A stretch of DNA of 63,278 bases, counting the filler, from Thermodesulfobacteriota bacterium (GTDB taxonomy: Bacteria; DASVDK01), in the NCBI GenBank assembly GCA_036381125.1. It is 5 parts of 5 records of this genome, joined end to end, with 100 filler letters (N's around TTAATTAATTAA, not from the genome) between each part and the next. Parts side by side here need not be neighbours in the genome. Positions count along the whole stretch, not along the records: positions 32,412 to 46,832 come from DASVDK010000220.1; 4 more parts are not named here. One strand, written 5' to 3'. The notes beneath the pieces are model-generated. The model made no database searches, was not told where the DNA came from, and was given only the letters and a program-made list of their open reading frames with translations. Position numbers and translations under genes: made by a program. The number at the start of each line of letters is the position of its first letter. The stretch's first letter is position 1. Positions 35,670 through 60,610 of this stretch are shown here, piece after piece.

Positions 35670-36320
35670 GTGGCCGCCGCCTGGCCACGACGCGGGCACG
35701 ATCGCTCGGTCGGGGAGCAGCCGTTGGCGCTCGATGAGCCGCGCACGAACGCGACGAGCGGCGAGCCGCGAACCGAGGCCGGCACGCCCCGCCAGCCCGT
35801 CCGCGGTCCCGGGGGACTGCGTCTGCTCAAGGGGTTGGAGCTTGCCCAGGACTTCGTCGTCGTCGTCGCGATCGTCGCCCTCTACGTCCTCATGGCGCGG
35901 CAGCTCGTCGGGATGTGGCGCCACGTCCAGGCCGGGCTCGACGTGCGCGCGATCCTCACGGATGTCCTGTTCCTGCTGATCCTCGTCGAGATATTCCGGC
36001 TGTTCATCTACTACCTGCGCGAGCGCCACGTCGCCGTCGGCACCATGGTCGAGATCGGGATCATCAGCGTCCTGCGGGAGGTCATCCTGATCGGGCCCCT
36101 GGAGGTGGCGTGGCCACAACTGCTGGCGATCACCGCCTTTCTCGTTGCCCTCGGCGGCTTGCTGCGGTTCGCCAGGTTCGATCGTGGAGGGGCCGTTCGG
36201 CCCGCGAGGCGAGGTCGCGGCACGGCGGGCCGGCGCCCGCGCGAGCGCCCGCGCCGCGAAGCGGACCTCGCGTGGACCGACGAGGCTCGCCGCGACGCGG
36301 ACCGAACCGGTGCGCGCTAG
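35670..36320 (+). CDS. PsiE family membrane protein (start uncertain)
   Basis: DVLFLLILVEIFR, VEIGIISVLREVI. Confidence 0.75.
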   Translation: MAAAWPRRGHDRSVGEQPLALDEPRTNATSGEPRTEAGTPRQPVRGPGGLRLLKGLELAQDFVVVVAIVALYVLMARQLVGMWRHVQAGLDVRAILTDVLFLLILVEIFRLFIYYLRERHVAVGTMVEIGIISVLREVILIGPLEVAWPQLLAITAFLVALGGLLRFARFDRGGAVRPARRGRGTAGRRPRERPRREADLAWTDEARRDADRTGAR

Positions 36321-36373
36321 GGCCCGTCGAGCCGGCGGCCGCGCCTGGCGGCGTCGGACCCGGAGGTCGTGAA

Positions 36374-37075
36374 ATGGAGCATTCGGTCTTCGTCGATCGG
36401 ACCGTCGACCTGCTGCAGCCGCTCCTCGGCTACGCCCGTGTCCGGCTCCGGGCGCACGAGGCGCTCGGCGACCTCCCGCCGGACCGCGTCCCTCCGGAGG
36501 AGGTCGTCGGCGCCGCGCTCGTCGAGGCGCTCCGCCGCGTCGACGACGCGCCGGCCGGCCGGCTCTACCCGTGGCTACGCGGCTTCGTGCGGCAGGCCGT
36601 CGCGCACGAGGTGACCGACGCACGCCGGCGGCGGCGCGAGCGTTCGCTCGAGGAGCCCGTCGGAGCCGACAGGTCCGAGGCGGAGGCCATCGGCGTCCCG
36701 CTGCGCCTGATCGACGTCCTGCCGGACCCGAAGTCGCCGACCCCCGAGGAGCTGGCCACGGCCGCGGAGGTCCAGCGGGCGATCGCGGCGCTCCTCGACC
36801 AGGCCCCGGACATCTGGCGCGAGCCGCTGCGGCTCCACGCCATCGACGGCCTCCCGATCGCGGCCGTGGCCCGGATGGAAGGGGTGACGGTCGCCGAGAC
36901 CCGCCGCCGCATCGAGCGGGCGCGCGAGTTCCTGAGGGCACGCCTGGCCGAGGAGTACGAGGAGGGGGCCGCCCCGCCGGCCGAGACGTTGCTCGCCGCG
37001 ATGCCGCGCGCCGAGGCGGCGCCGGAAGAGGTCGCTCGCCTGCGCGGACGCCTCGAAGCGGGCCGTGCGGGCTGA
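36374..37075 (+). CDS. ECF/sigma-70-like factor (degenerate region 2, clear region 4)
   Basis: LYPWL, PTPEE, W REPLRLHAIDGLPIAAVARMEG.TVAETRRRIERAREFLR. Confidence 0.7.
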   Translation: MEHSVFVDRTVDLLQPLLGYARVRLRAHEALGDLPPDRVPPEEVVGAALVEALRRVDDAPAGRLYPWLRGFVRQAVAHEVTDARRRRRERSLEEPVGADRSEAEAIGVPLRLIDVLPDPKSPTPEELATAAEVQRAIAALLDQAPDIWREPLRLHAIDGLPIAAVARMEGVTVAETRRRIERAREFLRARLAEEYEEGAAPPAETLLAAMPRAEAAPEEVARLRGRLEAGRAG

Positions 37076-37461: not shown

Positions 37462-37785
37462 TCAACTCGGCCGCCGCCCGAGCGTCTCGTCGACGTACCG
37501 GTCGATGGCGCGCTTGTCGGCCGGGTGGAGCTTCGTGAACCGCAGCCCCATCCCCACGTGAGGCTGCGTCCAGGCCACCTGCGCCTCGATCGTCATCGGC
37601 GCCGACTGGCCCGGGAGCATGAAGCGCAGGCGGACCGCCGACCCCTCGGGCAGCGGCGTCGGCGAGTCGACGAAGAGCCCGCCGTGTGAGAGGTCGGTGA
37701 TCTGTCGCAGGATCGGGGGTGAGTCCGCGGCGAGGGTGATCTCGACCACGAGCGCGGCTCGCGGCCATCGGCGGCGGTCATCCAA
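37462..37785 (-). CDS. Single-domain PilZ protein
   Basis: RRRWPR and DLSHGG motifs, GMGLRF. Confidence 0.85.
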   Translation of the reverse strand: MDDRRRWPRAALVVEITLAADSPPILRQITDLSHGGLFVDSPTPLPEGSAVRLRFMLPGQSAPMTIEAQVAWTQPHVGMGLRFTKLHPADKRAIDRYVDETLGRRPS

Positions 37786-39103
37786 CGTGGGTGTCCTTTC
37801 GGGAAGGCGGCAACGGGGCGATGACCCCCGGCCGCACCTGGTTGCGGCCGCCGTGCTTCGCACGGTAGAGGGCACGGTCGGCCGAGGCGAGCATCGTGGC
37901 GAACGGCACGTCCTCGCCGGCGTCGACCGAGACGACGCCGATGCTTGCCGTGAGGCGGATGATCCCCTGCGTGTCGAAGGGCGTGCCCGCGATCGTGGTG
38001 CGCAACCGTTCGGCCGCGGTCAGGGCGCCGCGATGGCTCGCCCCCGACAGCAGGATCACGAACTCCTCGCCGCCGTACCGGCCGACGAGGTCGAAGGGCC
38101 TGAGGTGCCGGCGCAGGAGCCGGCCGAAGGCGCGCAGCGCCGCGTCGCCGACCGCGTGCCCGTAGAGGTCGTTCACCTGCTTGAAGTGGTCGACGTCGAG
38201 CAGCATGAGCGCGATCGGCTCCCCGGCGCGCTGCGCCCGGCGCCGCTCCTCGGCCGCCAGCGCCAGGAACTGGCGGCGGTTGGCGAGCCCCGTGAGCGGG
38301 TCGCGGCCGCAGGCGTCGAGGAGCCGCTCCGTGGCGAGCCGCTCGCGGCGCCGGGCCTCCGAGAGGCGCAGCGCCACGACGAGCCTGAGGTCGAGTGCGG
38401 TCCAGGGCTCGTGGTCGGTGAGGCAGTCCATGGCGCCCGCCTCGAGCAACGCGCGGCTGTCGGCCGCCGAGGCGCCCGGCACGAGCAGGAGGATCGGCGC
38501 GCCCTCGAGCTCGCGCCGTGTGAGGAGCTGCTCGAGGTCCGCGTACGCCGACCGCGCGTCCGGGTAAGGTCCGGCCACGACGACCTGCGCCCCGGGGACG
38601 AGCCCGGCCGGCGCCGGATCGGCGAGGCGACGCGAGGGGAGTCCCTGCGCTGCGAGGCGCGCGACCAGGCCGGCCATGGCCGCCTCGTCCGGCCCGGCCA
38701 GCACCAGGCGAGGCCCCGCATCGGGTTGCGGCGCCGGGAGAATCGCCTCCGGCGTGGCGACACCCGGGGCGACGCGGGCCTCGAGGATCTCCTGCCAGGC
38801 GCTCAGGCTCTCGGGCACGATCCGCAGGCCGCCCTCGCCTCGACCGCCCGGCTGGCGCCACCAGCAGACCACCGCATCGACCACGGTCGACTCTCCCTCG
38901 CGGCCGGACACGACGAGGGAGAGCTGGTCGTTCGGGCGGGGATCGCCGCGGCCGACGAGCCGGAGCCCGTTGCGGCTCACGTCCACCAGTCGGCCGGTGC
39001 CGCCGACGAGCGCGGAGCACTCCACGCGGAGTTGTGCGGCAAGGTCATCGGGCAGGCGGACCCGCGGCTCGCGTAGGAACGGCCGGAAGGAGTCCCTGGG
39101 CAT
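37778..39103 (-). CDS. Diguanylate cyclase (PilZ + degenerate REC + GGDEF)
   Basis: REPR/DVSRNG PilZ, DPLTGLANRR, DVDHFKQVND.YGH.VGD, RPFD I-site, GGEEF. Confidence 0.9.
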   Translation of the reverse strand: MPRDSFRPFLREPRVRLPDDLAAQLRVECSALVGGTGRLVDVSRNGLRLVGRGDPRPNDQLSLVVSGREGESTVVDAVVCWWRQPGGRGEGGLRIVPESLSAWQEILEARVAPGVATPEAILPAPQPDAGPRLVLAGPDEAAMAGLVARLAAQGLPSRRLADPAPAGLVPGAQVVVAGPYPDARSAYADLEQLLTRRELEGAPILLLVPGASAADSRALLEAGAMDCLTDHEPWTALDLRLVVALRLSEARRRERLATERLLDACGRDPLTGLANRRQFLALAAEERRRAQRAGEPIALMLLDVDHFKQVNDLYGHAVGDAALRAFGRLLRRHLRPFDLVGRYGGEEFVILLSGASHRGALTAAERLRTTIAGTPFDTQGIIRLTASIGVVSVDAGEDVPFATMLASADRALYRAKHGGRNQVRPGVIAPLPPSRKDTHVG

Positions 39104-39238
39104 CGACGCCTCCGTCGAGGCCCGGGAGACGCGGGGCGCCTCGCGGGCACTGAGTGGTAACGGGGCGTCCGAGGCGTGACGGAACCGGGCCCTCCGGCCG
39201 AGGCATGACGCCTCCTGCCGGGGACCGCGGGCGGCCTT

Positions 39239-39328
39239 CCTCACTTCGGCAGCCCCGCTGCCCGGATCTGGCCCGGGCCGGTAGCTTTGCGACCCCGCCT
39301 CGCGACGGGTGTGCTCTTCTCGGTGAAG
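39239..39328 (-). ncRNA. GEMM-I (c-di-GMP-I class) riboswitch, A20 variant (c-AMP-GMP/3',3'-cGAMP-type)
   Basis: CUUCAC CGAGAAG A GC ACA CCCGUC GCGA GGCGGG GUC GC AAAG CUACCGG...GGCAGCGGGGCUGCCGAA GUGAGG, forming P1/P2/P3. Confidence 0.85.
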
Positions 39329-39351
39329 CGCCTTTCTGCGGTCGCCGGCCG

Positions 39352-39367
39352 AGCAAGCCCCGTGCCG
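39352..39367 (-). promoter_or_regulatory. Sigma54 promoter for the riboswitch-DGC-PilZ transcript
   Basis: CGGCACG-GGGC-TTGCT, near consensus; predicted start just upstream of P1. Confidence 0.7.
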
Positions 39368-39493
39368 TGGTTCCGCTGGCCGATGAACCGGGCACTTGCG
39401 GCCGGTCTCGGCGGCCGAGGCGTCGCGGAGCGTCACCCGAGGGTGACGCGCCGTGCACCGGATGTTTCCGGGGCGGCCCGCGGGCCCGGTCGT

Positions 39494-39523
39494 TTGACAG
39501 GCCGCGCTCGGCGGTGGTACGAC
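39494..39523 (+). promoter_or_regulatory. Sigma70 promoter of tRNA-Leu
   Basis: TTGACA-18-TACGAC with TG extension. Confidence 0.55.
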
Positions 39524-39532
39524 CGCCTGCAA

Positions 39533-39618
39533 GCCGGGATGGTGGAACTGGTAGACACGGCGGACTTAAACTCCGCTGCCCCGGACGGGGCGTGGGGGTT
39601 CGAGGCCCTCTCCCGGCA
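39533..39618 (+). tRNA. tRNA-Leu(TAA), integration target
   Basis: GCCGGGA/TCCCGGC acceptor, GCGGA-CTTAAAC-TCCGC anticodon arm, long variable arm, GGTTCGAG; no encoded CCA. Confidence 0.92.
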
Positions 39619-39678
39619 CTGAGAATCCGCGCAGTTACGGCCTCGTAGCGGGCCGCCTCTCCCTCCGAGCCGCCCGAC

Positions 39679-39699
39679 TTCTAGCCAAAGTTCTAGCCA
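39679..39699 (+). repeat. TTCTAGCCA direct repeat x2, putative integrase arm-type sites
   Basis: Copies at 39679 and 39691, between the tRNA and the int stop. Confidence 0.55.
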
Positions 39700-40829
39700 T
39701 TGCCCGAGGCGCCCTTCGTCGCGCCCTTGAGGGCCGCGTCGAGCTTGTCGGCGGCCTCCCGGTCCATCCCCTCGAGCACGTGCGTGTAGAGGTCGGCCGT
39801 GATCCCGATGGTCGAGTGGCCGAGCCGCTCGCTGACGACCTTGAGGGGCACCCCCTGGCGGAGGAGGTGGCTGGCGTGGCCGTGCCGGGCATCGTGAAAG
39901 CGCATCCGGGGCAGCTTCGCCCGGATGAGGAAGTCGCGGAAGGCCCGGGTGAGGCGATCGGGCGGCCAGGGGGTGCCGTCCACCTGGGCGAGCACGAGGT
40001 CGTCGTCGCCGAGGCGCTTGCCGAGCTGCAGGAGGGTCTCGGCCTGCTTCGCCCGGTGCTTCTTGAGGGCCGCGACCGCGGCGGCCGGAAGCGCGACCGC
40101 CCGGGGCTTGCCTGACTTCGGCGGCTTGAACCGGAGGCCCGCCTTCGTCTGCTCGAGCGACTGGCGAACGGTGAGGCGCCCGGCGTCGAGGTCGACGTCG
40201 CGCCAGCGGAGCGCGAGCAGCTCGCCCCGCCGGCAGCCGGTCATGACCGCGAGGAGCACCGGCATGCCGAGCGGCGTCCCGGCCGTCGCCTCCACGAGCG
40301 CGATCGTCTTCGCCTCGTCGAGCGGCTGCACGGTATGGCGGGCCGGCTTCGGTGTCTCGACCGCATCGGCGACGTTCCGGCCGAGGAGGCCCTTCTTGAC
40401 CGCCACGCGGAGCGCCCGGTGGAGCACCGCGTGCACCTGGCGGATCGTGGTCTCGGAGAGCTTCTTCTCCCGGAGGGCCGCGTAGGCCGCGTCGACCTGG
40501 AGAGGCGTGAGCTTCCCGAGCTTCACGTCGCCGAGGCGCGGCCGGAGGTGGAGGTCGACGATCTGCCGATAACGCTCGAGGGTCTTCGGCGTGACGGCCG
40601 GCGTCGCGTACTGCTCGAGCCACGTGGTCAGCCACTCGCCGACCGTGCGTCGGGCGGGCTCGACGTAGGCGCCCTGGTCGAGCGCGCCGAGGAGCTTCCG
40701 CAGCTCCGTCTTCGCCGCCTCCTTCGTCGCGTGGCCCTCATGCCACTTGAGCCGTCGCTTCCCGCCCTCCCGGCCGAGATCCACGACCGGGTAGTAGCGG
40801 CCGTTCTTCTTCGCGATGAACCCGGGCAT
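39693..40829 (-). CDS. int: Tyrosine recombinase/integrase
   Basis: RRGELLALRW, HDARH, LGHS...LYTH. Confidence 0.95.
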   Translation of the reverse strand: MPGFIAKKNGRYYPVVDLGREGGKRRLKWHEGHATKEAAKTELRKLLGALDQGAYVEPARRTVGEWLTTWLEQYATPAVTPKTLERYRQIVDLHLRPRLGDVKLGKLTPLQVDAAYAALREKKLSETTIRQVHAVLHRALRVAVKKGLLGRNVADAVETPKPARHTVQPLDEAKTIALVEATAGTPLGMPVLLAVMTGCRRGELLALRWRDVDLDAGRLTVRQSLEQTKAGLRFKPPKSGKPRAVALPAAAVAALKKHRAKQAETLLQLGKRLGDDDLVLAQVDGTPWPPDRLTRAFRDFLIRAKLPRMRFHDARHGHASHLLRQGVPLKVVSERLGHSTIGITADLYTHVLEGMDREAADKLDAALKGATKGASGNG

Positions 40830-46671: not shown

Positions 46672-46832
46672 AGACGAAGACGATCACGCTCAAGCTCGAG
46701 GTGCCGGCCAGCGAGGCGGCCCTGCTCGAGGGCCTCGACGACCTGCGCGCCGTGCACCCGGCGCTCCGTGAGGCCGAGTCGCGCGCTGCCGACCTCGAGC
46801 GCCGCCTCGCCGAGGCGAAGGCCGCGGTGCTC
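46668..46832 (+). CDS. Hypothetical protein, truncated by contig end
   Basis: ATGA-coupled start MKTKTITLKLE. Confidence 0.55.
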
Positions 46833-46932
46833 NNNNNNNNNNNNNNNNNNNNNNNNNNNNNNNNNNNNNNNNNNNNTTAATTAATTAANNNNNNNNNNNN
46901 NNNNNNNNNNNNNNNNNNNNNNNNNNNNNNNN
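46833..46932. other. Artificial contig linker
   Basis: N-run with TTAATTAATTAA. Confidence 0.97.
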
Positions 46933-59992: not shown

Positions 59993-60510
59993 ATGGGATC
60001 CGGCATCGAAACCCGCCTCGCCTCGCGCCGTCGGCGCACCGGCGAGGCGACACGAAGGACGGTCTCCAAAGCGGACGGAGGTGCGGCCTCCGGTCCGGCC
60101 CTCGCCGCGCGGTCCGCGCGATCGGGCAAAGAGGAGTCGCCACGTCGGCCTCAAGTCAAGGCACTCGACAAGGCGCTCAGGATCCTCTCGTATCTGGGCT
60201 CCGTCGGTCGCGACTCCGGCGTCCATGAGGTCGCCCGCGGGGTGGGCCTGCATCCCAGCACCGCCTATCGGCTCCTGACCGTGCTGGCTCGCCATCAGTT
60301 CGTGCAGCCGGCACCCGAGCCGGGCCGGTACGGGCTCGGCCTCCGGCTCCTCGAGCTCGGCAACAGGGTCCTCGACTCCCTCGAGGTCCGCGCCAAGGCG
60401 AGGCCCATTCTCGAAGAGTTGATGGCGAAGACGCGCGAGACCGTCTTCCTCATGATGCTCGACGGTAACGCCGGGATCTATGTGGAGCGGATCGAGAGTC
60501 CGCAGCGCAT
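59993..60510 (+). CDS. IclR family regulator, truncated
   Basis: ALDKALRIL, LHPSTAYRLL, YGLG.RLLELG, TRETV. Confidence 0.88.
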
Positions 60511-60610
60511 NNNNNNNNNNNNNNNNNNNNNNNNNNNNNNNNNNNNNNNNNNNNTTAATTAATTAANNNNNNNNNNNNNNNNNNNNNNNNNNNNNNNNNN
60601 NNNNNNNNNN
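60511..60610. other. Artificial contig linker
   Basis: N-run with TTAATTAATTAA. Confidence 0.97.

Follow-up and report, generated by a model that had tools for sequence, protein, structure and literature searches.

Which cyclic dinucleotide is read by a GEMM-I aptamer that carries adenine in place of the guanine of the canonical c-di-GMP pocket, and that stands directly in front of an enzyme expected to make c-di-GMP? The question is posed by a locus on the minus strand of the 63,278-nucleotide stretch of DNA analysed here (the window), which derives from a Thermodesulfobacteriota bacterium. GEMM-I aptamers in front of cyclase genes are already known, as are A20 variants that sense 3′,3′-cGAMP. 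A first-pass annotation of the locus had read it as a sigma54-driven, cGAMP-type riboswitch that controls a canonical diguanylate cyclase and a PilZ protein, and had proposed cross-talk between two second messengers.

The GEMM-I aptamer

The features of the RNA that matter for its identity are as follows.

39323–39328, minus strand: 5′ strand of the P1 helix, CUUCAC, forming six pairs (one of them G-U) with GUGAGG at 39239–39244
39245–39325, minus strand: GEMM-I (c-di-GMP-I family) aptamer
39315, minus strand: pocket base equivalent to Vc2 G20, here A
39239–39244, minus strand: 3′ strand of the P1 helix, GUGAGG, which is also part of an alternative helix

A covariance-model search with cmscan matched the aptamer to RF01051 (c-di-GMP-I) over the full model (positions 1–87) with a score of 62.1 bits, against a gathering score of 35, and an E value of 9.7e-10. 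Only three matches in the whole window reached the gathering level, the other two being tRNAs. All 22 model pairs are standard, three of them G-U. The RNA is a genuine GEMM-I riboswitch in a 5′ leader, as the first-pass annotation had proposed from its fold, and the motifs named there (P2 CCCGUC-GCGA-GGCGGG, GCAAAG, a short P3 and UGCCGA), together with every other sequence feature that it listed, are present where it had placed them.

Like Vc2 of Vibrio cholerae, a member of RF01051, the window RNA has P1, a P2 hairpin with a GNRA loop and P3, keeps A47, A48, C92 and the GCCGAA tail in the cmscan alignment, and lies in the 5′ leader of genes for making and sensing c-di-GMP. It differs from Vc2 in its short P3, where seven model positions have no counterpart in the alignment, in its host, an uncultured high-G+C soil lineage, and in the base at position 20. 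We take Vc2 G20 to correspond to model position 11, which immediately precedes, on the 5′ side, the G-C/C-G pair closing beside A47; here it is the adenine at 39315, in agreement with the earlier assignment, and the same column was also checked by cmscan in four comparison loci. Contigs from four DNA sequencing runs, compared at 80% similarity, yielded short pieces of low depth that gave nothing usable for this column. The RNA thus belongs to the RF01051 fold family by score, and its pocket is not of the canonical G20–A47–C92 type, position 20 being A. The 5′ joining strand, CACCGAGAAGAGC, differs only at position 20 from its counterpart in the G20 locus L164 (CACCGAGAAGGGC), and the pocket flanks match those of G20 relatives. 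As judged from these alignments, the predicted ligand pocket departs from the canonical c-di-GMP pocket by a single change, G20A.

The cyclase and PilZ operon

Two overlapping genes lie downstream of the aptamer.

39101–39113, minus strand: Shine-Dalgarno sequence GGAGG (39113–39109) and ATG start codon (39103–39101) of the cyclase
37778–39103, minus strand: diguanylate cyclase P0003, 441 residues, with PilZ, receiver-like and GGDEF regions identified by Pfam and profile matches
37462–37785, minus strand: stand-alone PilZ protein P0002, 107 residues, TTG start, identified by Pfam and translation

The ATG at 39103 has GGAGG 5 nt upstream, and the four closest orthologues (P0004–P0007) start at the same methionine as the cyclase; with this start, the leader spans roughly 140 nt from the aptamer to the start codon. 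An ATG at 39206, which follows AGGAGG, is out of frame and was rejected as the cyclase start. The upstream open reading frame that begins there was also rejected as a gene, its GC3 being 0.74 compared with 0.93 in the cyclase.

The GGDEF domain of P0003 (PF00990, E = 1.1e-43) carries the motifs GHAVGD, GGEEF and RPFD (an RxxD I-site), none of which varies among the 16 aligned sequences. A canonical diguanylate cyclase was taken to have GG(D/E)EF, the guanine-reading Asp and an RxxD five residues ahead of the motif, and by sequence P0003 has all three. A Hypr GGDEF was taken to replace the guanine-reading Asp by Ser or Thr (PleD D344/GacA S348) and to carry GGDE[F/Y], where P0003 and all of its aligned relatives read GHAVGD and GGEEF. 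The combination of Asp and GGEEF is described in the cited passages as acting solely as a diguanylate cyclase (PMC6456294), and the view of the enzyme as canonical and not Hypr is borne out.

The other regions of P0003 are more divergent. The N-terminal PilZ domain scores 25.6 bits against a Pfam cut-off of 22.5, with a match that begins only at profile position 23; it is matched in all 16 members (best E = 2.5e-07) with an invariant DVSRNG, and its arginines read REPRVR, a spacing that differs from RxxxR. A profile of the 16 sequences matches PleD (1w25; query residues 135–425) and WspR (3bre; 133–425), such that residues 133–425 of P0003 align with the receiver and GGDEF domains of these cyclases, with which it also shares RxxD and GG(D/E)EF. 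Unlike PleD and WspR, P0003 has an additional N-terminal PilZ domain, and no Pfam receiver match was obtained in any of the 16 members; VVVAGP at the usual phospho-acceptor region probably replaces the Asp.

PilZ receptors of c-di-GMP carry the motifs RxxxR and (D/N)xSxxG. P0002, whose start overlaps the stop codon of the cyclase by 8 nt, consists almost entirely of a PilZ domain (PF07238, E = 2.4e-18, residues 3–99) and has both motifs, as RRWPR and DLSHGG, so that by sequence it would qualify as a receptor domain and the expected stand-alone PilZ gene does follow the cyclase. The operon comprises two genes, since the next coding signal sits on the opposite strand, and it is predicted to encode a canonical, product-inhibitable cyclase and a single-domain PilZ receptor.

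Ligand of the A20 aptamer

We favour a sensor of c-di-GMP with relaxed specificity in a two-gene c-di-GMP operon, with feedback control as its most likely role, and give this reading about an even chance. Relaxed specificity is suggested because the pocket is canonical except for G20A: such an aptamer would bind c-di-GMP more weakly than a G20 aptamer does and would additionally bind 3′,3′-cGAMP, which would then be read as well if the organism makes it. Feedback by c-di-GMP is the minimal function because the one ligand whose synthesis can be inferred is c-di-GMP, which the cyclase of the operon is predicted to make.

Of the earlier label, 'A20 GEMM-I' stands; 'cGAMP-type' is not established, because A20 does not ensure selectivity, the flanks are G20-like and the gene context is one of c-di-GMP. 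The cited part of the literature treats A20 as a selectivity factor and not as a filter (PMC9262584). Vc2 G20A and the natural A20 RNA Cbe 1-2 of Clostridium beijerinckii, to which the window RNA is likened by its pocket base only (a canonical pocket with A20), bind both dinucleotides at nanomolar Kd according to the cited passages (53 nM for c-di-GMP versus 120 nM for cGAMP with Vc2 G20A; 30 nM versus 463 nM with Cbe 1-2), and the selectivity reported there for the Gs1761 construct is only about threefold (PMC6140456). We regard as the key point the caveat already attached to the first-pass annotation, namely that an A at position 20 cannot by itself assure selectivity.

The gene context bears on the same issue. 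Genes for c-di-GMP production and signalling are described as the classic association of GEMM-I (PMC7266159). The window RNA has the A of GEMM-Ib at the Vc2-G20 equivalent, as well as the scaffold of the GEMM-Ib RNAs of Geobacter (Gs1761, Gm0970, pilM), and a protein from the sequence cluster of P0003 bears the label of their broad bacterial group. Its gene context is not the published one for GEMM-Ib: a diguanylate cyclase and a PilZ protein lie downstream, and not the genes for cytochromes, pili and polysaccharide that published cGAMP riboswitches control in the cited passages (PMC6456294, PMC7266159). Most of the sampled A20 aptamers (25 of 32) combine G48 with the joining strand CUCAGAGC, and the window RNA has neither.

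Several observations weigh against c-di-GMP feedback. The nearest sampled aptamers include the A20 loci L257 (71% identity) and L227 (69%), from genomes with Ser-type GGDEFs, in a similarity ranking that is weak because G20 aptamers follow at 70% and 69%. A G20 aptamer would suit c-di-GMP feedback better, so the retention of A20 needs a reason, for which we offer affinity tuning as a suggestion. A second A20 aptamer stands in front of a canonical cyclase in a genome that has Hypr-like enzymes, which is more readily explained by cross-talk than by chance.

The cross-talk envisaged in the first-pass annotation, in which cGAMP from a Hypr GGDEF or a CD-NTase encoded elsewhere in the genome gates the canonical cyclase and the PilZ protein through a GEMM-Ib riboswitch, is possible, and we rate it clearly below an even chance. 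Besides the A at position 20 itself, it is favoured by the recurrence of A20 in 32 of 150 GEMM-I matches (151 sampled genomes) and by the source of the two A20 aptamers most similar to that of the window, which come from genomes with Ser or Thr for Asp in some of their GGDEFs (G001, three of 20 GGDEF matches; G146, one of nine). The phylum of Geobacter, in which cGAMP signalling is known according to the cited passages (PMC6456294, PMC8835794), is also that of a P0003 cluster member (90% identity) named Thermodesulfobacteriota bacterium. An independent parallel is provided by locus L311 of the Geobacteraceae genome G001, where an A20/A47/C92 aptamer directly precedes a canonical cyclase with the motifs GHAAGD, RADD and GGDEF in a genome that encodes Ser/Thr-type GGDEFs. 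The L311 cyclase differs from P0003 in being a membrane protein that lacks both PilZ and receiver-like domains; nor was a PilZ gene noted.

The lack of assured selectivity with A20, the prevailing G48 sequence type of the sampled A20 aptamers and the published gene contexts, all given above, count against cross-talk. A six-frame GGDEF profile search also found no Ser/Thr-type GGDEF in the 63-kb window, where the single GGDEF is the canonical cyclase, and Pfam detected no CD-NTase domain among the 41 window ORFs scanned. Moreover, the organism is distant from the genomes sampled: no orthologue of P0003 at E ≤ 1e-50 was found in any of 401 sampled genomes of the phylum of G001 (with the best four candidates per genome scored), GuaB identity is at most 76% in 374 of these 401, DnaE identity is 50–58% in ten genomes, and no close relative was found among the genomes searched. 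In scans of genome and metagenome contigs with P0003 or its alignment, the matches listed were all generic GGDEF-domain ones.

A probable sigma54-type promoter

Two elements lie upstream of the aptamer.

39352–39367, minus strand: sigma54-type −24/−12 element cGGCACGgggcTTGCT (GG-N10-GC), the sole match in the window at one mismatch or fewer
39426–39453, no strand assigned: inverted repeat from a repeat search, with 13-nt arms at 39426–39438 and 39441–39453 that are 2 nt apart

The sigma54 consensus is TGGCACG-N4-TTGCW. The element, located 42 nt before the aptamer match, deviates from it by one mismatch over the 12 specified bases, stands at the distance from the aptamer seen in the comparison loci and places the predicted transcription start near 39341. 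A like element is found 33–70 nt upstream of 11 of 30 GEMM-I loci in the sampled related genomes, compared with none of 30 on the opposite strand and seven of 1049 other 150-nt windows. The arms of the inverted repeat are 92% complementary, and its centre lies near −98 relative to the predicted start; it may serve as a binding site for a sigma54 activator. On the strength of the sole window site and the 11 comparison loci, the sigma54-type promoter proposed earlier is likely, and the two genes are probably transcribed from it as an operon. No copy of the tRNA-Leu 3′ end that would delimit an island to the right was seen in the 20 largest repeat families, out of at least 60.

Alternatively, the promoter would not be sigma54-dependent, GGCACG-N4-TTGC being a chance occurrence at 73% G+C and the true start an unrecognised sigma70- or ECF-type start elsewhere; we think this rather unlikely. 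Chance matches are not rare at the scale of the whole window, where GGCACG-N4-TTGC occurs once against a shuffle mean of 0.20 and TGGCACGNNNNTTGCW at one mismatch or fewer once against 0.22, a match being present in 19 and 21 of 100 shuffles, and where allowing two mismatches gives five matches with 4.78 expected. The parallel locus L311, unlike the window, also has a sigma70-like promoter. What speaks against chance is position: a match on the right strand within the stretch of about 205 nt that separates the aptamer from the tRNA gene is expected by simple arithmetic in about 4 of 10,000 cases, and the recurrence of the element at equal distance in the comparison loci, set against both controls, points the same way, as does the palindrome at about −98. 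No sigma70-like site was found in 38900–39700. Among the 22 sequencing runs listed, no RNA run containing the sequence was seen.

Leader folding and a model of the switch

One further segment is considered for the region between aptamer and start codon.

39158–39192, minus strand: candidate switching segment, from RNAduplex; model only

In RNAduplex calculations this segment pairs with 39231–39262, which covers the 3′ half of the aptamer and the 3′ strand of P1, at −39.1 kcal/mol and with 39098–39118, the ribosome-binding region, at −23.2 kcal/mol. In one calculation, the probability that the Shine-Dalgarno sequence is unpaired is 0.20 in the unconstrained fold and 0.21 when the aptamer is enforced, two values that are similar because the freed 5′ strand of P1 can also pair with the Shine-Dalgarno region; in another, it is 0.23 when the aptamer is enforced and 0.79 when the 5′ strand of P1 is blocked. 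Plain thermodynamic folding was rejected as proof of a switch, since it shows no clear one (0.20 versus 0.21, with a z-score of −1.4 for the minimum free energy of the leader), and the fold model of the leader is fragile.

In the proposed mechanism, ligand binding would lock P1 (39323–39328 with 39239–39244), which would free segment 39158–39192 to pair with the Shine-Dalgarno region, so that the ligand would lower translation and the riboswitch would act as an OFF switch. The direction is supported by the contrast between the unpaired probabilities of 0.23 and 0.79 and by L311, which has a clear terminator-type OFF design: its classic terminator with a U-run sets it apart from the window leader, at which no terminator with a U-run was found.

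The folding results also touch on the least probable alternative. That the aptamer reads a different ligand, such as a further cyclic or a linear dinucleotide of the kind proposed for the GGC and UAU variants, or is a decaying, non-regulatory element, is very improbable: apart from the lack of a clear switch in folding, it can draw on the existence in Rfam of variant families with the same fold (RF03167, GGC; RF03168, UAU) and on a UAU score of 61.3 bits, close to that of the parent model, but this score is below the cut-off of 65.9, all 22 pairs are preserved along with the A47/C92 pocket, and the aptamer is correctly placed and oriented before a gene of the matching pathway. Identity with c-di-GMP-I-UAU (RF03168) was rejected on that score and on the missing U20 and U92 (A20 and C92 here), and identity with the GGC variant (RF03167) was rejected by variant-model comparison. 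We know of no ligand established for either variant family.

Implications

An A20 aptamer combined with a canonical PilZ-containing cyclase and a PilZ partner was not met in the literature searched; the supplementary lists of the primary papers may include A20 aptamers in front of cyclases. A side result that may be useful beyond this locus is that sigma54-type promoters directly precede 11 of the 30 examined GEMM-I aptamers of the same bacterial group.

If the RNA binds c-di-GMP, as we favour, it would be a natural low-affinity feedback sensor, and A20 alone must then not be used to annotate cGAMP riboswitches. If it prefers cGAMP, it would link two cyclic-dinucleotide networks directly. With at least two unrelated loci in which an A20 aptamer precedes a canonical cyclase (the one in the window and L311), gating of c-di-GMP synthesis by 3′,3′-cGAMP at the RNA level may be a recurrent design, a proposal that we make tentatively and with some doubt. 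Were both loci OFF switches, cGAMP would shut down the production of c-di-GMP, and such a design, if true, would explain directly, at the molecular level, why the cGAMP and c-di-GMP lifestyles oppose each other as described for Geobacter.

Aptamer and operon

RF01051 (c-di-GMP-I) matches the minus strand at 39245-39325 over the full model (1-87) with a score of 62.1 bits (E = 9.7e-10; gathering score 35; cmscan, Rfam 15), and the only other matches at gathering level in the 63 kb window are two tRNAs. When the model structure is mapped onto the sequence, all 22 model pairs are standard, three of them being G-U, and an additional helix, P1, pairs CUUCAC (39328-39323) with GUGAGG (39244-39239). 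The base at 39315 (model position 11), which we take to be the equivalent of Vc2 G20, is an A and is the 5' neighbour of the two pairs that close beside the intercalating adenine. The consensus is kept in the GCAAAG junction (A47 and A48 in Vc2 numbering) and in the GCCGAA tail (C92). These features bear out the first-pass annotation's description of the RNA, which is a fresh member of a known fold family with an A20 pocket. The UAU variant model was rejected (61.3 bits against a cut-off of 65.9; the defining U20 and U92 are missing).

The start codon of the downstream cyclase (P0003, 441 residues) is ATG 39103, which GGAGG precedes by 5 nt; ATG 39206 is out of frame and was discarded as a start. 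Pfam places a GGDEF domain at residues 267-422 (1.1e-43) and a PilZ domain at the N-terminus (25.6 bits; cut-off 22.5). No Pfam model names the middle domain; in a profile search built on 16 aligned sequences it lines up, together with the GGDEF domain, with the receiver and GGDEF domains of PleD (1w25; query 135-425) and WspR (3bre; query 133-425). A search of 5.8 billion proteins returned 15 full-length relatives, 92-48% identical and exclusively of metagenome or MAG origin, and the 90%-identity cluster of P0003 has one member labelled Thermodesulfobacteriota bacterium. The PilZ domain is detected in all 16 family members, and the Asp (in GHAVGD), the RxxD residues (RPFD), GGEEF and the PilZ DxSxxG are invariant in the alignment. 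The conserved arginines of this PilZ domain read REPRVR rather than with the usual RxxxR spacing, so that its binding of a ligand is uncertain. According to PMC6456294, natural GGDEF domains with Ser or Thr at the guanine-reading position carry exclusively GGDE[F/Y], and the Asp/GGEEF combination confers solely diguanylate cyclase activity. P0003 is therefore predicted, in line with the first-pass annotation, to be canonical and not of the Hypr-like, cGAMP-making type.

The stand-alone PilZ gene noted after the cyclase is present: it runs from TTG 37785 to 37462 (-), has an 8 nt overlap with the cyclase stop codon and encodes a 107-residue protein (P0002; Pfam PilZ, 2.4e-18) with RRWPR and DLSHGG motifs. 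The operon is predicted to comprise these two genes, since the next one, judged by codon-position composition, lies on the opposite strand (its ORF ends at 37075). Both the cyclase and the PilZ receptor are ordinary proteins. The convergent ORF, 35915-37075 (+), matches sigma-70 region 4 (9.5e-06), narrowly missing the Pfam cut-off, and may encode an ECF-type sigma factor. Upstream of the aptamer the window contains:

39533-39619 (+), tRNA-Leu(TAA)
39693-40829 (-), tyrosine-recombinase (phage integrase) gene, directly after the tRNA gene on the other strand

A tRNA gene adjoining an integrase gene typically marks an integrated element, which would here lie to the right of tRNA-Leu, so placed that the riboswitch operon, on the other side of the tRNA gene, falls outside it. 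The largest repeat families include no second copy of the tRNA end. Elsewhere, a 114 nt direct repeat (46819-46932 and 60497-60610; 96% identical, 13.7 kb apart) has an internal 8 nt periodicity, each copy being about 70% self-like at that shift.

Promoter and leader

The element cGGCACGgggcTTGCT at 39367-39352 (-), 42 nt upstream of the aptamer, has GG and GC spaced by ten bases and differs from TGGCACG-N4-TTGCW at a single position. No other site in the window comes within one mismatch of this consensus (shuffle mean 0.22). About one fifth of whole-window shuffles contain such a match by chance; for the correct strand of the ~205 nt that separate the tRNA-Leu gene from the aptamer, our own arithmetic puts the expected frequency at about 4 in 10,000. 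With two mismatches allowed, the window has no excess of -24/-12 sites (five observed, 4.78 expected). Stronger support than these shuffle statistics comes from the 30 best GEMM-I loci (L161-L190) of sampled genomes from the phylum of G001, a MAG labelled Geobacteraceae: at up to two mismatches, 11 of the 30 have a -24/-12 element 33-70 nt upstream of the aptamer, compared with 0/30 on the opposite strand and 7/1049 other 150 nt windows. All 11 aptamers are G20, and seven precede fn3-domain surface proteins. No sigma70-like site was found near the window aptamer, and the predicted sigma54 promoter probably drives the riboswitch operon. Between the tRNA gene and the sigma54-like box lies an inverted repeat (39426-39453; two 13 nt arms, 92% complementary and separated by 2 nt). 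It is centred ~98 nt upstream of the predicted transcription start and by this position is a candidate activator site.

The 140 nt leader between the aptamer and the cyclase start contains GAGGCG three times (at 39214, at 39141 and, within the Shine-Dalgarno region, at 39112) and several (C)GCCUC copies, and no terminator with a U-run is present in it. The sequence GGAGGCGUC(G)AUGCC occurs twice within 39098-39216 (-), at 39215 and 39113; the upstream copy was rejected as a gene start as its 53-codon frame looks noncoding. Segment 39158-39192 is predicted to pair either with the 3' half of the aptamer and the 3' strand of P1 (-39.1 kcal/mol) or with the region of the Shine-Dalgarno sequence and start codon (-23.2 kcal/mol), and we propose that it switches between the two. 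The unpaired probability of the Shine-Dalgarno sequence is 0.23 with the aptamer and P1 enforced and 0.79 with the P1 5' strand blocked, which suggests that ligand binding would lower cyclase translation; an OFF direction is thus slightly favoured by the modelling. The model is fragile, since in the unconstrained ensemble the P1 5' strand, once freed, itself base-pairs with the Shine-Dalgarno region and the difference disappears (0.20, against 0.21 with the aptamer enforced).

Survey of GEMM-I aptamers

Across 151 sampled genomes of the same phylum, RF01051 has 221 matches, spread over 62 of the genomes. The best 150 (L161-L310) were surveyed; A20 may be under-counted, as the 71 lower-scoring matches fall outside this set. 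Pocket bases were called by fixed offsets from the hit ends, in agreement with cmscan alignment at all four loci checked. Among these best 150 of 221, 118 carry G and 32 carry A at position 20. G48 (GCAGAG) together with a CUCAGAGC joining strand accompanies A20 in 25 of the 32, G48 being found in only one of the 118 G20 aptamers, and this combination may serve as a further hallmark of the main class of A20 aptamers. The other seven have A47/A48/C92, as in the window, where the joining strand CACCGAGAAGAGC is that of the G20 locus L164 save for position 20. By identity, the nearest surveyed aptamers are L257 (A20, 71%), L194 (G20, 70%) and L227 (A20, 69%), a mixture from which the window aptamer appears to cluster clearly with neither type.

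The first downstream ORF was found for 146 of the 150 matches and scanned with Pfam. Only two encode a GGDEF domain, behind L221 (A20) and L306 (G20, U92), and two an HD-GYP-type domain (L193 and L228, both G20); the remainder are mostly fn3/adhesin-like proteins, pilins, TPR proteins and unknowns. Six of the 150 combine G20 with U at the C92 position (L312, L216, L240, L287, L304 and L307; tail xUCGAA or GUCAxx), among them

L312, 3096-3169 (-), genome G140, G20/U92 aptamer

cmscan confirms one of the six, which is followed by a receiver-GGDEF cyclase that has Asp and GGDEF. From simple base-pairing considerations, a G20/U92 pocket might accept cGAMP in reversed orientation.

Ligand

The first-pass annotation called the riboswitch cGAMP-type; the A20 base stands, the cGAMP assignment is not established. 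According to PMC6140456, the affinity of Vc2 G20A is 53 nM for c-di-GMP and 120 nM for cGAMP, that of the natural aptamer Cbe 1-2, also A20, is 30 and 463 nM, the cGAMP preference of a Gs1761 construct is only about threefold, and P1 stability and K+ seem to play a part. Position 20 is described as a selectivity factor and not a hard filter (PMC9262584); Gm0970, in contrast, is reported to be ~1600-fold selective (PMC8835794). This literature shows that A20 is insufficient to call a cGAMP riboswitch.

We give about even weight to c-di-GMP as the working ligand, in a feedback circuit, with cGAMP also read if present. This reading is ranked first because c-di-GMP is the sole ligand inferable for this cell, the pocket is the canonical one with one base changed, and some natural A20 aptamers prefer c-di-GMP. 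The gene context is also that of classic c-di-GMP-sensing GEMM-I RNAs, many of whose associated genes concern c-di-GMP production, degradation or signalling, whereas cGAMP variants regulate other gene types (PMC7266159). Furthermore, no second GGDEF was found within the 63 kb window, and the organism is only a distant relative of the sampled genomes.

That cGAMP instead gates c-di-GMP synthesis, the cross-talk originally envisaged, is rather unlikely on these grounds, yet the idea stays alive and recurs owing to an independent parallel locus in G001 (L221/L311; 3340-3620 (-)). By cmscan alignment it has an A20/A47/C92 aptamer, like the window; its best model is RF03167 (59.2 against 59), but it is without that family's G47. 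Its 391-residue membrane cyclase, with GHAAGD, RADD and GGDEF, is likewise predicted to be canonical. Of 20 GGDEF matches in G001, two have Ser and one Thr in place of the Asp, all three combined with GGDE[F/Y], so that this A20 aptamer precedes a canonical cyclase in a genome that probably makes cGAMP; in G146, the source of L227, Ser occurs in one of nine. In contrast to the sigma54-like box of the window and its lack of a U-run terminator, L221/L311 has a sigma70-like promoter (TTGACA-16-TATGCT) and a terminator of 12 pairs and a U-run. Aptamer, P1 and terminator coexist in the minimum-energy fold (z-score -3.69), which indicates a predicted OFF design. For the window aptamer, another ligand or a dead element is very improbable.

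Neither an A20 aptamer preceding a canonical cyclase nor sigma54 promoters ahead of GEMM-I aptamers turned up in the literature searched, outside which lie the primary papers and their supplements. Two loci are now at hand on which the ligand question in a c-di-GMP gene context can be tested, and this question, the enrichment of sigma54-type promoters upstream of GEMM-I aptamers and the natural G20/U92 variants are each worth specialist attention.
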